DNA from: an uncultured delta proteobacterium | Lineage (GTDB): Bacteria; Desulfobacterota; Syntrophorhabdia; Syntrophorhabdales; WCHB1-27 | Length of the DNA stretch: 64,000 nucleotides | Assembly: GCA_963810935.1 (NCBI GenBank) | Contig: CAWEPK010000010.1 | Location: 192,001 to 256,000, forward strand | Direction of reading: 5' to 3' | Part shown: piece by piece, positions 41,829-47,233 of the stretch | Position numbering within the stretch: the first letter of the stretch is position 1 | Layout: every line of letters starts with the position of its first letter | Made by a program: the position numbers and the translations under genes | Notes under the pieces: model-generated | What the model saw: only the letters and a program-made list of their open reading frames with translations | The model's database searches: none | Told to the model about the DNA's origin: nothing

Positions 41829-43238
41829 TTAAACTTTGCCAAATCCCTTGACGAAGTCCTCGAGTCTCACGGACCCCCATCCCATCGGCCTGCACCGGGT
41901 GAAACGGTTCCGCTCCTCCTTCCGGAAGAGGGACGGCTTCGTCGCATCGATGCCCATCTTCCCGCCCATCCTCTGCCATGTCTGTTCGCCGGGAGGCGAT
42001 ATCTGTGGGCACGAGGGGTCCATCGGGTGTATCCGGTTGCCTTCCGTGCGGATGATGTCTCTTTCAGGATTGACGCGCGTGGAGACCGCCCACCACAGAT
42101 CGGCGGGGTCCTCGATATTGACGTCTTCGTCGACCGCTACCGCGATCTTTGGATGCAGGTAATTGCATGAAAGGGCGGACATCAACGCATCCTTGACCTG
42201 TCCCTCGTAGTGCGCGGTGAGTTTCAGAACCACAAGCCACGCGCTTCCCCAGATGGGTACCATGACATCGTGCACATCGAGGCTTCCGCCGTGCAGACTG
42301 CTGACCCTGCGGTAGATATCGGCCTCGATGGGAAGGCCGATGAGCGACTGGTGTTCCGTGAACTCCGTCGCCTGTATGCTCCGGAAGATAGCGTCGTGGC
42401 GCATGGTGATGGCCGTCACCTCGAAGACGGGGTTTTTGCCCTCACCGGAGAAGAAACACGTAAACTCACCGAAAGGCCCCTCTTCTTCCCTGACGCCCGC
42501 CTTCACGTAGCCTTCGATGACTATCTCAGCGTAAGCTGGAACGTCGAGATCTATCGTCTCGGCCGGAACCAGCTCGGCGGGCTCGCCAAGGAGCCTGCTG
42601 GCAACCTGGAACTCATCCATCTCGTATGGTCCCGACACGTTCGTCGCAATATCCCACGCCGGATGGTGGCCGATTGCGACCGCCATCGGCATGTCGCGGC
42701 CCAGCGCCTCGTACTTGCTGAACTGCACCCATGTGTGGCGGGGCACCATCATGACCCCCATTTTCCTCGGGCCCTTCGCCTGCATCCTCAGGCATGCGAC
42801 GTTCCGGTTGCCCGTCTCCGGGTCCTTAGTGATGTTCATGCCGGAGCCGATGAACCGTCCGGCGTCGATGTTCGACATTTTCGTGATGGGGATATCGAAG
42901 ATGTTTGCCTTCTCCCCGATAAATATGCGTTCTTTCACGGGCCCCGTCGCCACGCGTTTGCACTCGCCGCCCTGTGCCGCGAGGACTTGCGCGAGATAGC
43001 GGGCGACACTTCCGGAGGAGCTGCCCATTGCCAGTGCCTGACTTTTCCGCGTCCGCACCAGGTCATCAACGACCCGCCACGAGTCGTAGCCCTTGATCGT
43101 CTTGAAGATGATGGGGCCCGGCGCCTTGGATGCGAGCTCGGCCAGCTCGTTGACAGGGTCCACCTCCCTCTCGACCGTCAAAAGATCGCTCCCCAGCTCT
43201 TCGATGAAAGTCCTCAGATCTTTGGGCATTTCGCTCAT
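41829..43238 (-). CDS. UbiD-family prFMN-dependent (de)carboxylase
   Basis: DLRTFI, DAGRFI, PRH, AEIVIEG, EEGPFGEF, VDEDVNI, MGIDAT. Confidence 0.92.
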   Translation of the reverse strand: MSEMPKDLRTFIEELGSDLLTVEREVDPVNELAELASKAPGPIIFKTIKGYDSWRVVDDLVRTRKSQALAMGSSSGSVARYLAQVLAAQGGECKRVATGPVKERIFIGEKANIFDIPITKMSNIDAGRFIGSGMNITKDPETGNRNVACLRMQAKGPRKMGVMMVPRHTWVQFSKYEALGRDMPMAVAIGHHPAWDIATNVSGPYEMDEFQVASRLLGEPAELVPAETIDLDVPAYAEIVIEGYVKAGVREEEGPFGEFTCFFSGEGKNPVFEVTAITMRHDAIFRSIQATEFTEHQSLIGLPIEADIYRRVSSLHGGSLDVHDVMVPIWGSAWLVVLKLTAHYEGQVKDALMSALSCNYLHPKIAVAVDEDVNIEDPADLWWAVSTRVNPERDIIRTEGNRIHPMDPSCPQISPPGEQTWQRMGGKMGIDATKPSLFRKEERNRFTRCRPMGWGSVRLEDFVKGFGKV

Positions 43239-43436
43239 CCCTCCTTGTTCTGTGCGTTTCTTATGGCGTCCGGCCCTCTCGACCGGTCCCTGATAGTCGA
43301 TAAGCATTTACTTTGTTCAAACAACAATGAGTTTGTCAAGGGCTTATGCAAACTCGCGCACTGCCCTCCAATCGGCTCGCGCCCGCCCACGCTTCAACCG
43401 TAACGCGTCGGGACAAGCTCCGGGGAAGCGCTGCAA

Positions 43437-43589
43437 ATGAGCGTCAGCGAGATGATAAATCCTTGCAACACGAATGCCAACGGCTTCGATGCGGCCCTCC
43501 TGGGCCTCGTGGTGATAGCCGCCATCTGGGCAGTCGTGGGCTTTCTGATGCCGGAGGTAGGGCAAAGCGCCAAGCGGTCTGAAATGTAG
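43437..43589 (+). CDS. small single-TM protein (50 aa), below the ORF track cutoff
   Basis: MSVSEMINPCNTNANGFDAALLGLVVIAAIWAVVGFLMPEVGQSAKRSEM*; GC-rich third positions in the TM part; downstream terminator. Confidence 0.5.
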   Translation: MSVSEMINPCNTNANGFDAALLGLVVIAAIWAVVGFLMPEVGQSAKRSEM

Positions 43590-43668
43590 TCGCAACCAAT
43601 TGCTGTTCAATAAAGCGATATTATCGGCTGATGTAGCAGCGAGACCGTTTTTTGCAGTTTGCTTGCTG

Positions 43669-43710
43669 CGGCGCTTCCACCGGGACGCATGGAAGCGCCG
43701 TTTCTTTCTC
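43669..43710 (+). terminator. rho-independent terminator
   Basis: 11-bp perfect stem CGGCGCTTCCA / TGGAAGCGCCG followed by TTTCTTTC; lies between convergent genes. Confidence 0.65.
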
Positions 43711-43715
43711 TCCCG

Positions 43716-43979
43716 CTATTTCTTCTTTGGTGGCGGGGCCGGCTTCGCGGTGGCCGCCGTGCCTGAAGCCTTCTGGACCGGCGCCCCTTTCACCGTGGGC
43801 GGAGGCGGGGGAAGATTGACGGGAACCCTGGCCGTGCTTAACTCGTTCCCCTGGCCTGTGGCCGGCCTGCTGTTGTCGAAAACCTGGCCTGCCGTAGAGG
43901 TCTGCTGGGCCAAAAGGCCGCCGGCAGCGAAGAACAGAAATAACAATGCGAGACCTGTGAAACTACCGATACGCTTCAT
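43716..43979 (-). CDS. small secreted Pro/Ala/Thr-rich protein
   Basis: AAAGGAGG RBS; signal peptide ending LLA|QQ; PPPPP tract; KKK tail. Confidence 0.75.
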   Translation of the reverse strand: MKRIGSFTGLALLFLFFAAGGLLAQQTSTAGQVFDNSRPATGQGNELSTARVPVNLPPPPPTVKGAPVQKASGTAATAKPAPPPKKK

Positions 43980-44002
43980 GATTCCTCCTTTGTTTCTGAT
44001 AT

Positions 44003-44416
44003 TCAGACGTAGACCTCCTGAAGCTTTTCAAGGACCTTGAGGATGGTGCCCACGATCTCTTCCGGCCTTCCGTCCATAGGGTCGATTGTGACCATCGGTG
44101 TCAGGCCCGCAGGCGAGAGGATGGCGATATTGTACCGGCTCCCGGCTTGCAGATCCTCCAGGTATTCAGGCATTGAATCGGAGTAGACCATCAGGGCGAT
44201 ATAGTAATCGTGAAGAAGGTTACGGAGCCTTTCATTCAACGGCATGGCTCGCAGCACACCCTGTAAAAAGGGTGCGATAACGGGGTCGGGATTGGCCACG
44301 AACAGAAGGACGGGGCGGTCCCGTTCCTCTATCGTCCCGAGCGTATCGTCATTCCATTCGTGCCAGAGGATGCCGTCTTTCGGAAATTCGGGCCGGGCGT
44401 CGAAGGATGATGTCAT
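44003..44416 (-). CDS. thioredoxin-fold-like protein resembling DUF255/YyaL N-terminal domain, no Cys
   Basis: ILWHEW......E.DRPVLLF, L..LL...YI, ILSP.G pattern; GGGGAG RBS. Confidence 0.55.
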   Translation of the reverse strand: MTSSFDARPEFPKDGILWHEWNDDTLGTIEERDRPVLLFVANPDPVIAPFLQGVLRAMPLNERLRNLLHDYYIALMVYSDSMPEYLEDLQAGSRYNIAILSPAGLTPMVTIDPMDGRPEEIVGTILKVLEKLQEVYV

Positions 44417-44487
44417 TTGATGCTCCCCGTAAAGACGGGCCGGATGCTCACAAAATCATGAAATTCCCGGCCGCGAGAACAGCCCCG

Positions 44488-44823
44488 TCATTTCGCGACA
44501 GGTTCTTTCTCTGCCGTCCCTGTGGCGGACGTCCCCGTAGTTCCCGGCTCGCCGGGGGCGGCGCCCTTTTGACCCGACGGAGGGGCAGGCCGTGGACGCT
44601 GGACCCCGTATTTGACGACCGGCTCGATTTTGTACGGCCGGTCCGGGGCCGGCGTCAATCTATCCGACGGGTACGGGGGCGGCGGCCCGTATTTGACCTT
44701 AAACCCACCGTCAGGCTGCTGCGCGCCGGACTTACCCGACAGCAGCAGCATACCACATAGGAACAGCCAGACGATCTTCCTGAAGCTGAACAGCTTTCTT
44801 GCCAATGCTTCTATAATTCTCAT
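44488..44823 (-). CDS. secreted Pro-rich protein with two VKYG motifs; candidate substrate of the adjacent radical SAM enzyme
   Basis: ATG overlaps the rSAM stop (ATGA), AAGGAG RBS; signal peptide SGA|QQ; FKVKYGPPPP and PVVKYGVQRP. Confidence 0.8.
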   Translation of the reverse strand: MRIIEALARKLFSFRKIVWLFLCGMLLLSGKSGAQQPDGGFKVKYGPPPPYPSDRLTPAPDRPYKIEPVVKYGVQRPRPAPPSGQKGAAPGEPGTTGTSATGTAEKEPVAK

Positions 44824-45918
44824 ACACACTCCTTGCCGTGAAGGCAGTTGAAGTGACAGACGTCCGGTGCGTTCGTGTCGAAATTCCACAGGTGGAGGCT
44901 GTTTCCCTTGCATATCCACCATTGCGCGCAGTCCCGGCAACTCCCCTGCCTCATCCACTGCCGGTCCCTGAACGGCTGGAACTTGTTCTCCCAGCAATCT
45001 GCGAAAGATTCCTTTCGGATGTTGCCCTGGACGAGCCTCCTCGATACGCTGGGGCAGGCCGATATCTCCCCGTGCGCGAGGATGCCGCCTATCTCTATGC
45101 CCGCCCGGCAACTGTAGAAGGCGTCCCTCACTTCCCTTTCGAGCTCGCACCCGAGGAAACCCTCCTCGTCTACCGATACGCGCATAGGCGCGCCTGCTTT
45201 CCTGGCATCTCTCGCGAACTCATAGAGCTTTCTGTAGTCGCCCGGCCGCAAAAGGAGGTCGTAGTTCCCTTTGGCCCTTCCGCCGGGAAACAGCGTGATG
45301 AGACGCCATTCCCGGACCCCCTCTTTTTCGATGAACTCGTGGATGTCCGGCAGCTTGTCTACGGTTCTCCTGGAAACGGTCGTAGCGACTTCGAGGCCCG
45401 AAAGAAACGCACGGTCCCCCAAGGCCCGAATGGCGCCTACCGCCCTGTCGAATGAATCCGCGTTCCGTCTCAGCCAGTTGTGGTCCTCCTTCAGGCCGTC
45501 GAGGCTGACCGTGACCGTGCTCATGCCGGTAGCCCGGCATTTTTCGATCGCCTCTTCCGTCATCGCGAACCCGTTAGTGACCATCCCCCACGGGAAGCCG
45601 AGCGCCGAGATCCTTTCGGTCACCGCGAAGATGTCCTTTCGCAGCAAGGGCTCGCCTCCGGTGATGGCGACCATTATACCTTTCGGGTCGTACCGCCCGG
45701 CGACCGATTCGAAGCCGCCTATGATCTCTTCCGTTGTCAACTCGAGCCGCGTGTCTTTGGCGGACGAGCAATCGCTGCCGCAGTGAAGGCAGTCTGAGGT
45801 TGCAAGCGAGCGTCGCCTCCCAAAAGAGGTACCGCAGGCTGTGCTCCATTGTGGCCAGGCGCAGGTATCGCGACCACGCCCTTAACTGGAGCCGTTTCTT
45901 AAAGTTACCGAGCACCAT
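44820..45918 (-). CDS. radical SAM/SPASM protein (TIGR04133-like); apparent +1 frameshift at 45792
   Basis: Removing one base restores LFWEATLACNLRCLHCGSDC (CX3CX2C); ITGGEPL, VTNG, SLDG; SPASM C.AG...G.ISACPS..QGN..W...F..FRDR.W...C..C.....C.GN..H. Confidence 0.88.
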
Positions 45919-46031
45919 GCAATTACCATGTTAACATAGTGCGCCGTCAATCATCCAGAGGGCCGGAGCGAAAAGATGAAGAAACGCTGCCGATATGGTA
46001 GAAATACATCCAGAGGAGCAGTTAACAGCCA

Positions 46032-46523
46032 ATGAAAAAATCATCAGGAACGATCGTAGCGATAATGGCGGTAGTTATCTTGGCAGGGACTTTTATTACG
46101 GCGAAATGTGCGACGGCAGGGGAGACCGGAAGGGATGGCCGTTTCATTGCCTATGACAACGGGACGGTCCTGGACAACGGGACTAACCTGATGTGGGCGG
46201 CCCATGACAGCGGGTCGAACATCAACCGGGATGATGCCAAGAGTTATTGCGAGCATTATCGGGGAGGCGGATATACGGACTGGCGGATGCCGACGGGGAA
46301 TGAGCTGGCGGCGTTGTATGATACGGGTAAAATTTATATGTCCAACTGTGGGAATCCTGTCTACTTAACGGCGTTGATTCATCTTACATGCAGCTCGATC
46401 TGGGCTTCAGAGGCACGTGATTCCGACGCCGCCACCTTCTATTTCGACTTTGGCAAACTTTATTGGGCTCCACAGTCCCAAACTATCAACTACCGGGCGC
46501 TTCCCGTGCGTTCCGGCAAATAG
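46032..46523 (+). CDS. exported DUF1566 (CLec-like) domain protein
   Basis: Signal peptide; DNGTVLD..TNLMW, A..YC, GGYTDWRMPT..EL, W.S, C-terminal RALPVRSGK. Confidence 0.88.
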   Translation: MKKSSGTIVAIMAVVILAGTFITAKCATAGETGRDGRFIAYDNGTVLDNGTNLMWAAHDSGSNINRDDAKSYCEHYRGGGYTDWRMPTGNELAALYDTGKIYMSNCGNPVYLTALIHLTCSSIWASEARDSDAATFYFDFGKLYWAPQSQTINYRALPVRSGK

Positions 46524-46573
46524 CTTATTTGGCCATTTTCTTTTGGCCGGAGGTGAGGGCTTTTTCATTCAAT

Positions 46574-47233
46574 ATGACACCGAATAATTGCAGGCCAATC
46601 ATTTGCACTGTCGTTTCTGCTGCTATCCTGTTTGCGTTGCTTCCCGCGCAGGCACATGCCGACCCGTGCACTACGGAAATTCCCAAAGCAATACGGCTCC
46701 TGGAAGAAGGCGTCGACGTCAACACCCACGACGAATATAAGAGGACCTCTCTCCACTATGCGGCATTCTGTGGCAAGACCGAATTGGCCGGGCTGCTGAT
46801 CAAGAAAGGCGCGGACGTCAGCGCCCCGGACGAGGGCCAGAGTACCCCTCTGCATACAGCGGCTTGTGGAGGCGTAGGCCATGCCGATGTGGCTGCTCTG
46901 CTGATTGAAAAAGGCGCAGATGTGAACGCCCGGGACAAAGAGCAGGCCACACCCCTCCACATTGCGGCCGGCGGAGACGATCTCTTGTTGGTTGCTTTGC
47001 TGATTAAGAAAGGCGCCGATGTGAACGCCAGGGACAAGGACCGGAGGACTCCGCTGCACGAAGCGGCATTATTAGGAGCAGGCAATATCAAGGTGGCTGC
47101 TCTGCTGATTAAGAAAGGCGCCGATGCAAACGCCCAGGATAAGGAGCACGACACGCCGGCCATGCTTGCGGAGAAGAATGGCTATACCGAACTTGCCGCC
47201 ATGCTGCGTAAGGCCCAGGGTAAAAGAAAATAG
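46574..47233 (+). CDS. exported ankyrin-repeat protein
   Basis: Signal peptide AHA|D; repeated TPLH.AA...LLI.KGADVNA.D units. Confidence 0.92.
   Translation: MTPNNCRPIICTVVSAAILFALLPAQAHADPCTTEIPKAIRLLEEGVDVNTHDEYKRTSLHYAAFCGKTELAGLLIKKGADVSAPDEGQSTPLHTAACGGVGHADVAALLIEKGADVNARDKEQATPLHIAAGGDDLLLVALLIKKGADVNARDKDRRTPLHEAALLGAGNIKVAALLIKKGADANAQDKEHDTPAMLAEKNGYTELAAMLRKAQGKRK

Follow-up and report, generated by a model that had tools for sequence, protein, structure and literature searches.

The window, the whole 64,000-nucleotide stretch analyzed here from an uncultured member of the Syntrophorhabdales, carries on its minus strand a radical SAM/SPASM enzyme gene resembling NCBIfam family TIGR04133, followed by a small gene for a proline-rich protein (P0002) with a signal-peptide-like start and two Lys-Tyr-Gly (KYG) motifs. 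The gene pair is conserved among relatives, and the Tyr-Gly (YG) dipeptide is the conserved feature of the partner protein. Judging from gene order and motif, P0002 is very probably the substrate of the enzyme. As an explanation of the whole locus we tentatively propose, with somewhat less than even confidence, a two-gene maturase/substrate unit with splicease-type excision.

The gene pair and its close relatives

The features of the locus are as follows.

44820..45918, minus strand: TIGR04133-like radical SAM/SPASM gene, 365 aa after one extra base is skipped, stop codon (44822-44820) included
45792..45794, minus strand: one-base insertion that splits the radical SAM gene in the assembly (frame analysis and contigs of public runs)
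45780..45804, minus strand: CX3CX2C radical SAM cluster motif, CNLRCLHC once corrected
44928..45110, minus strand: SPASM domain for auxiliary iron-sulfur clusters (Pfam PF13186 at E 1.1e-7, spanning P0001 residues 228-288)
44829..44834, minus strand: AAGGAG ribosome-binding site inside the end of the radical SAM gene, 5 nt upstream of the partner ATG
44488..44823, minus strand: 111-aa partner ORF (P0002), the presumed substrate, whose ATG overlaps the radical SAM stop codon (ATGA)
44722..44823, minus strand: signal-peptide-like start formed by partner residues 1-34 (by eye, a basic n-region, then a hydrophobic core and SGA/QQ)
44686..44694, minus strand: first KYG motif, FKVKYGPPPP (K44-Y45-G46)
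44605..44613, minus strand: second KYG motif, EPVVKYGVQRP (K71-Y72-G73)

The minus-strand ORFs 45918..45574 and 45740..44820 are two pieces of a single radical SAM/SPASM gene. The first reads MVLGNF...LACNLR and closes in ...LFWEATLACNLR, with the frame lost after the break; the other frame, from 45791 (44820-45791, minus strand), reads CLHCGSDC... and runs for 323 residues up to the stop codon, SPASM end included. When one base is skipped after the AGA codon, the junction becomes LACNLRCLHCGSDC, the canonical CX3CX2C motif. The TIGR04133 profile matched with its positions 1-37 in one frame and 37-349 in the other, which puts the junction of the two frames precisely at the break. The two ORF pieces, the profile join and the motif agree on the frameshift site and on the corrected enzyme reading that the first-pass annotation had given. 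A four-letter step (AGAC=R) across the break fires again at codon 150, which leaves only the first 149 residues of that reading meaningful; therefore, the in-frame piece and an intact ortholog served as search queries.

The stop codon of the enzyme gene and the ATG of the 111-aa ORF overlap as gtATGa, and in the ORF list this ORF is visible solely as the end of a longer, 220-aa call with a GTG start (44488..45150). This overlap and the hidden ORF, as well as the KYG codons at 44694-44686 and 44613-44605, were found where the first-pass annotation had placed them. When 43500-46300 was scanned for promoters and terminators, no signal exceeded those of shuffled sequence. Pfam assigned no family to the two downstream ORFs (137 and 87 aa) and only Lcl_C upstream; these genes were considered as parts of the system and set aside because they are not kept near the related loci L010, L011, L013 and L014. 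In the neighboring ORFs scanned, Pfam found no PqqD/RRE family, in line with the earlier remark that no separate PlpY/RRE gene is evident.

P0002 begins with a basic n-region and a 14-residue hydrophobic core ending in SGA/QQ, which by eye is a type I-like A-x-A cleavage site, and continues as a proline-rich body. Its tyrosines lie nearly all within KYG motifs. No lipobox surrounds the Cys of LFLCG, a residue replaced by Ala in the related protein P0008 and by Ser in P0021, in keeping with the non-lipidated partner proposed earlier. A family search with P0002 matched no known family, and a search of the genome with P0002 found no second partner copy.

Sixty related genomes from four families of the order were searched. 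The enzyme gene was present in five of them, all in the window's own family (5/21, against 0/2, 0/3 and 0/34 in the other three families). An intact CX3CX2C motif and a small ORF directly downstream, in the same gene order, were found in all five, and the intact orthologs of the enzyme were 361-365 aa long. Four of the five loci have a partner with an open frame; in the fifth, L012 of genome G004, it is frameshifted (intact form P0014). Genome G002 also holds a second, multiply frameshifted copy (L015), which lies in the window's gene context.

In the alignment of five orthologous partners, 18 of the first 36 positions were invariant versus 7 of the remaining 75. E67, P68, V70, K71, Y72 and G73 were invariant in the five, so that the core outside the signal reads E-P-x-V-K-Y-G. 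The second KYG site is common to all orthologs, and the first is present in those of the same genus; the other KYG precedes the conserved site in the window's genus and follows it in other genera. A profile search over 5.8 billion proteins, which was based on homology and not on the motif, found 26 partner clusters, each unnamed or annotated as "hypothetical protein". Gly directly follows Tyr at 55 of their 63 tyrosines, and these 55 YG sites are preceded by Lys (position X) in 49 cases and followed by Pro in 49. Two sites were found in 18 of the 26 clusters, three in 6 and one in 1, with none in the frameshifted form.

The enzyme family and its YG-bearing neighbors

Pfam matches to Radical_SAM (PF04055, E 1.7e-15) and SPASM (PF13186, E 1.1e-7) place the enzyme in the radical SAM/SPASM superfamily. 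In an alignment of 52 homologs, C39, C43 and C46 of the CX3CX2C motif are invariant, as are seven more cysteines, namely C50 and, in the SPASM half, C270, C288, C327, C330, C336 and C354.

TIGR04133 (rSAM_w_lipo, curated cut-off 425 bits) scored 333.6 bits with the post-break piece and 25.6 bits with the pre-break piece. The next NCBIfam matches of the post-break piece were NirJ (111 bits), AhbD (109), mycofactocin maturase (105) and TIGR04053 (104), and it scored 102.3 bits against TIGR04103, the PlpX family, and 87.3 against TIGR03913. The intact ortholog L010, 95% identical, reached 377.2 bits with TIGR04133, which is also below the cut-off, followed by TIGR04103 (136.5), AhbD (133), TIGR04053 (128) and TIGR03913 (114). 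Among more distant homologs, the one from Alistipes (L033) exceeded the cut-off with 594.3 bits, and the one from Anaeromyxobacteraceae (L017) reached 353 bits. By these profile scores the enzyme is TIGR04133-like, though under the family cut-off, and the likeness to TIGR04133 suggested in the first-pass annotation holds, this family being the top match by far (333 vs 111 bits, and 377 vs 136 for the intact ortholog). Membership in the PlpX family (TIGR04103, IPR026482) was rejected at 102-136 bits against a curated cut-off of 725, and membership in the GDL-motif peptide maturases (TIGR03913) at 87-114 bits against 591.75. The AhbD-like gene of the same genome is a separate locus (L002, 433 bits). 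The solved structures nearest by sequence were SkfB (6efn), BlsE, PqqE (6c8v), anSME (4k37), CteB (5wgg) and SuiB (5v1q), and the 16 solved sequences that this search matched included no splicease.

A quick tree of 36 rows was built, with nine outgroup rows from three genomes, several of them long-branched. The spliceases were represented by stand-ins, TIGR04103-like genes of three Myxococcota genomes (189-299 bits) and not characterized spliceases; other radical SAM genes from those genomes and from the window's genome were also included. The 20 TIGR04133-like rows, with the window enzyme inside, formed one clade (SH-aLRT 99). Within this clade, the Syntrophorhabdales rows (support 100) joined L017, L019 and L018 (91-94), thus grouping with the Myxococcota and Armatimonadota versions and apart from a Bacteroidota/Fibrobacter clade (100). 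The TIGR04133-like clade, the TIGR04103-like clade, AhbD and the others formed a polytomy, and the tree neither shows nor rejects a sister grouping of TIGR04133-like enzymes and spliceases.

An enzyme scan of 185,579 species, with a single genome per species, yielded at least 585 relatives. The best 79 of these loci belonged mostly to Bacteroidales and Fibrobacter, and also to Anaeromyxobacteraceae, Armatimonadota, Ktedonobacter, Chloroflexota and others. Gut and rumen Bacteroidales were the source of most of the 79.

These best 79 of at least 585 loci were screened for a same-strand neighbor within 1200 nt that combined a signal-like start with YGxP or YGP. The screen was positive at 67 of the 79, compared with 9 of 526 in a minus-strand control, and the adjacent YG-motif ORF, which the first-pass annotation proposed to look for, is thus kept in homologous loci. 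In seven of the 12 misses the upstream flank was shorter than 500 nt, and L020 (AYGIQPP), L073 (KYGVMPP) and L086 (VVYGPRP) were missed though they bear a motif. Because the screen selects on Pro, the count was redone without this requirement: YG was present in 84 of 123 same-strand signal-like ORFs lying no more than 300 nt from the enzyme, against 59 of 510 on the minus strand, and Pro stood one or two places past Gly in 82 of 148 YG dipeptides (control, 7 of 72). These counts are a description of the pattern and not a test of it, since the sets contain spurious ORFs and the loci are mutually related.

Position X was variable in 128 motif instances from the best 79 loci (Leu 30, Lys 26, Met 24, Glu 24, Cys 6, Ala 4, Ile 3). 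The partner, often present in two to four tandem copies, was upstream of the enzyme in 51 cases of this set, compared with 12 where it was downstream. Bacteroidales and Fibrobacter have small multi-KYG[VP]P lipoproteins that lack a folded domain (L022, L037, L076, L081, L082 and L085), and non-lipidated partners bearing a C-terminal membrane helix were found at L020 and L023. TIGR04134 matched the partners of L027, L036, L041 and L091 at 44-112 bits; with E allowed up to 1, it matched neither P0002 nor the partners at L013 and L014.

The first-pass annotation had named Lys at X and two sites as features of this pair. Both are common in the wider family, where Lys occupies 26 of the 128 X positions and multi-KYG lipoproteins occur in Bacteroidales and Fibrobacter, so neither is special here; a missing lipid anchor also has parallels at other loci. 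On present sequences, the mark of the Syntrophorhabdales version is a combination, namely a partner with a putative Sec signal that lacks both anchor and domain and lies downstream in ATGA coupling.

The proposed reaction and its alternatives

Four observations argue that the partner is the substrate: the start/stop coupling; the fixed gene order in close relatives; the occurrence of an exported YG neighbor across phyla, with partners alike in the motif alone; and the confinement of nearly all partner tyrosines to YG.

Splicing removes C8H9NO (135.07 Da) at XYG with formation of a ketoamide, and is known so far in small cytoplasmic RiPPs. Ketoamides of this kind are electrophilic and block serine and cysteine proteases. 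In the proposed mechanism, the TIGR04133-like enzyme would target tyrosines at K-Y-G-(P) sites while the protein is in the cytoplasm and excise a tyramine equivalent per site, converting Lys-Tyr-Gly to a Lys-derived α-keto-β-amino acid followed by Gly. Modification would precede export, after which the product, soluble, disordered and rich in proline, would leave through Sec. [quoted passage not shown] The Lys-derived ketoamide might be aimed at Lys-specific or trypsin-like proteases. A complex prediction for the intact ortholog of the enzyme (52-row alignment) with P0002 (5-row alignment), run without controls, gave scores of 0.05 and 0.11, under the mark of 0.32.

Published spliceases excise a tyramine equivalent at XYG (PMC11414181, PMC10533398, PMC11626197, PMC9811515), tolerate many residues at X (PMC9811515, PMC11414181), can act at several sites of one precursor (PMC11414181, PMC11626197), and include binary systems that have a leader helix instead of a Y protein (PMC11414181). 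The variable X beside a fixed Y-G in the present family fits a Tyr-Gly-centered, X-tolerant reaction as in spliceases. The natural PlpA-derived splice tag GPIRPLYGLPI also reads x-Y-G-x-P (excerpts of PMC10533398), and a likeness between this family and known splice sites is plausible, with very few published sites underlying it. Given that the partner is the substrate, splicing would be close to an even prospect for the reaction.

The strongest rival retains the same enzyme and substrate and supposes another radical chemistry at the tyrosine, such as a cross-link from Tyr to Pro or to the backbone (cyclophane type), D-Tyr epimerization, β-hydroxylation, or Cα/Cβ cleavage without re-joining. 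The reactions of SPASM peptide maturases are diverse, no splicease is among the solved enzymes nearest by sequence (SkfB, PqqE, anSME, CteB and SuiB), and neither the profile scores nor the tree resolve a kinship to TIGR04103. The Pro after Gly would be a possible cross-link partner; it is conserved at 49 of the 55 sites of the partner family and, in other phyla (best 79 of at least 585 loci), at 82 of 148. Speaking for splicing instead, X is free to vary, which makes a cross-link to X unlikely, and a Gly kept beside Tyr is the hallmark of known splice sites in the excerpts of PMC11414181, PMC10533398 and PMC11626197. We regard another chemistry as a serious possibility, if clearly short of even.

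A separate issue is whether the enzyme gene is truly a pseudogene in this genome, with the pair inactive here, a situation that would be compatible with any family-level reading. The extra base is present in the assembly, and broken copies occur among the relatives, L015 being multiply frameshifted and the L012 partner (P0027) frameshifted. Four public runs from one soil-metagenome study, in which 80-89% of the stretch's sampled words were present, bear on this point. Their contigs (depth about 5; contigs, not raw reads, and possibly from the MAG's own sample) were aligned to 45300-46000, and in all four runs they had one base fewer at the break. The X1 contig lacked the base at 45792 and was otherwise identical over 540 bases; the X2-X4 contigs lacked it at 45794 and carried a strain reading, CNLNCLHC, like that of ortholog L010. 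The removal of one base at 45792, made in the first-pass annotation on the letters alone, was thereby supported, by run contigs rather than reads. Because the contigs of all four runs are without the extra base, the break is very probably an assembly error or a minor variant, and the population probably carries an intact gene. The remaining frame is moreover open and 95% identical to the intact ortholog, and a true pseudogene is improbable. The host is a soil anaerobe.

The weakest rival, in which the enzyme acts on a small molecule or cofactor like AhbD or NirJ and the small exported ORF is an unrelated neighbor, can draw on AhbD, NirJ and TIGR04053 scores that match those on peptide-maturase models but is very improbable against the start/stop overlap, the gene order kept across related loci, the exported YG neighbor in Bacteroidota, Fibrobacterota, Myxococcota, Armatimonadota and Chloroflexota with only the motif in common, and the NCBIfam definition of the TIGR04133/TIGR04134 pair by adjacency.

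Significance and comparison with known systems

If splicing is the reaction, backbone β-amino acids and ketoamide warheads would be routine in exported bacterial proteins, and their reach, with at least 585 enzyme relatives, would extend far past small cytoplasmic RiPPs. A bolder extension, which we consider rather unlikely, is that TIGR04133-like enzymes are spliceases for exported proteins, with the Sec or lipoprotein signal serving as a RiPP-type leader, and that the Syntrophorhabdales polyproline protein is a covalent protease inhibitor. The enzyme would then modify the unfolded chain before export, and a soluble polyproline protein with two or three Lys-derived α-ketoamide warheads would reach the cell envelope, where trypsin-like or Lys-specific proteases would be the targets. 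The Syntrophorhabdales partner is the simplest substrate seen, with no lipid anchor, no folded domain, and two or three near-identical KYGPP sites.

The TIGR04133-like enzyme/exported-protein pair is already catalogued and widespread, and by sequence comparison the present locus is a divergent member of it. What the locus adds is a minimal variant and a resolved frameshift; the pair itself may perhaps be in the literature already. As reported in the excerpts of PMC10849128, Scott et al. (2022) collected 3418 candidates from the rSAM-SPASM proteins of UniProt reference proteomes and PlpX BLAST hits, screened them for YG-rich neighbors, and confirmed 27 pairs, with a set spanning 189 genera. That screen may have caught the TIGR04133-like family. 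Our literature search found no paper naming TIGR04133 or TIGR04134 and no experiment on any TIGR04133-type enzyme, and in the excerpts returned for spliceotides and for YG motifs with radical SAM enzymes a TIGR04133-type pair was not found described.

Among known systems, the heme-modifying SPASM enzymes AhbD and NirJ give scores similar to those on peptide maturase models. They differ in having no adjacent YG protein, and the AhbD-like L002 is a separate gene here. SkfB, PqqE, anSME, CteB and SuiB match in the radical SAM core and SPASM domain (E 9e-21 to 8e-13); they are distant and have other reactions and other substrates.

TIGR04133 and TIGR04134 are NCBIfam hypothetical equivalogs, the former named "TIGR04133 family radical SAM/SPASM protein" and the latter described as a "radical SAM-associated putative lipoprotein", and the pair is defined by adjacency. 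The present locus shares with it the enzyme clade, an adjacent, presumably exported partner, and x-Y-G-x-P just past the signal. It differs in that the enzyme of the intact ortholog scores 377 bits, under the cut-off of 425, and in that the partner is unmatched by TIGR04134, with which it shares only xYG(x)P. In contrast to TIGR04134 partners, P0002 has neither a lipobox nor a beta-rich domain after the motif, and it lies downstream with an ATGA overlap.

The spliceotide systems comprise type I (PlpX/PlpY/PlpA and PcpXYA of Pleurocapsa) and the binary type II (RhaX/RhaA, RcsX and RasX). They differ from the present locus in that its enzyme falls outside TIGR04103 and TIGR03913, its partner carries a putative Sec signal and not a Nif11/NHLP-type leader, and the pair is known from sequence alone. 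As in PlpX-type systems, an XYG-bearing precursor adjoins the enzyme, in P0002 as well as in its orthologs and the 26 clusters. By the excerpts of PMC11414181 and PMC11626197, both have a radical SAM/SPASM enzyme beside an XYG precursor, several sites, and a free X, and by those of PMC11414181 type II has a binary organization without a Y protein, which the locus may share.

Genes flanking the pair in the window

The ORFs below lie near the pair formed by the radical SAM/SPASM gene and its secreted KYG partner in the window.

46032-46523 (+): protein that has a signal peptide and, by its PF07603 match (E 3e-15), an Lcl C-terminal domain
46463-47233 (+): ORF after the Lcl protein gene
44003-44416 (-): 137-aa ORF, downstream of the partner gene at a distance of 72 nt
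43716-43979 (-): 87-aa ORF whose signal-like start ends in LLAQQ and whose body is proline-rich
41829-43307 (-): 492-aa ORF

Both plus-strand ORFs are transcribed divergently from the radical SAM gene, and, judging by eye, the product of the second resembles an exported protein with ankyrin repeats. Searches of Pfam and NCBIfam returned no match for either the 137-aa or the 87-aa ORF. The former was absent beside the pair in four related loci (L010, L011, L013 and L014), and the latter, which contains no YG, was kept only in locus L015 of the related genome G002. On visual inspection, the 492-aa ORF looks like a UbiD-type decarboxylase.

Broken copies and a variable neighbour in relatives

L015 (G002, contig C13) duplicates the entire pair within the same gene context as in the window, with the Lcl_C gene upstream and the 137-aa and 87-aa ORFs downstream. 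Both genes of this second copy contain several frameshifts, and G002 also has an intact copy of the pair at another place (L010). In the related genome G004, the partner gene (L012:2469-2791) has a frameshift after the signal peptide and before the KYG body (P0027), as compared with the intact 108-aa form of the protein (P0014) present in the protein collection.

A zinc-ribbon-like protein (CxCG...CxxC, with YDxxExPxDxEKL) adjoins the pair in two relatives, on opposite sides, and is absent from the window.

L011:1807-2259: zinc-ribbon-like protein
L014:3293-2724 (-): zinc-ribbon-like protein

TIGR04103-like enzymes running into YG repeats

Two Anaeromyxobacteraceae genomes carry ORFs resembling TIGR04103, the PlpX splicease family.

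L095:1438-3180 (G061): TIGR04103-like radical SAM/SPASM ORF (profile scores, TIGR04103 299 bits and TIGR03913 279 bits)
L096:1435-3324 (G062): TIGR04103-like radical SAM/SPASM ORF (TIGR04103 281 bits and TIGR03913 275 bits)

Neither enzyme ORF has a stop before an in-frame lipoprotein-signal-like segment (...AAAAAGIAFVMGGATAC), after which 4-5 Cys-rich repeats follow, each with [DE]YG[IVTE][IP]P. Judged from this sequence arrangement, both look like fusions of an enzyme with an exported YG-repeat substrate, or like read-through from the one into the other.
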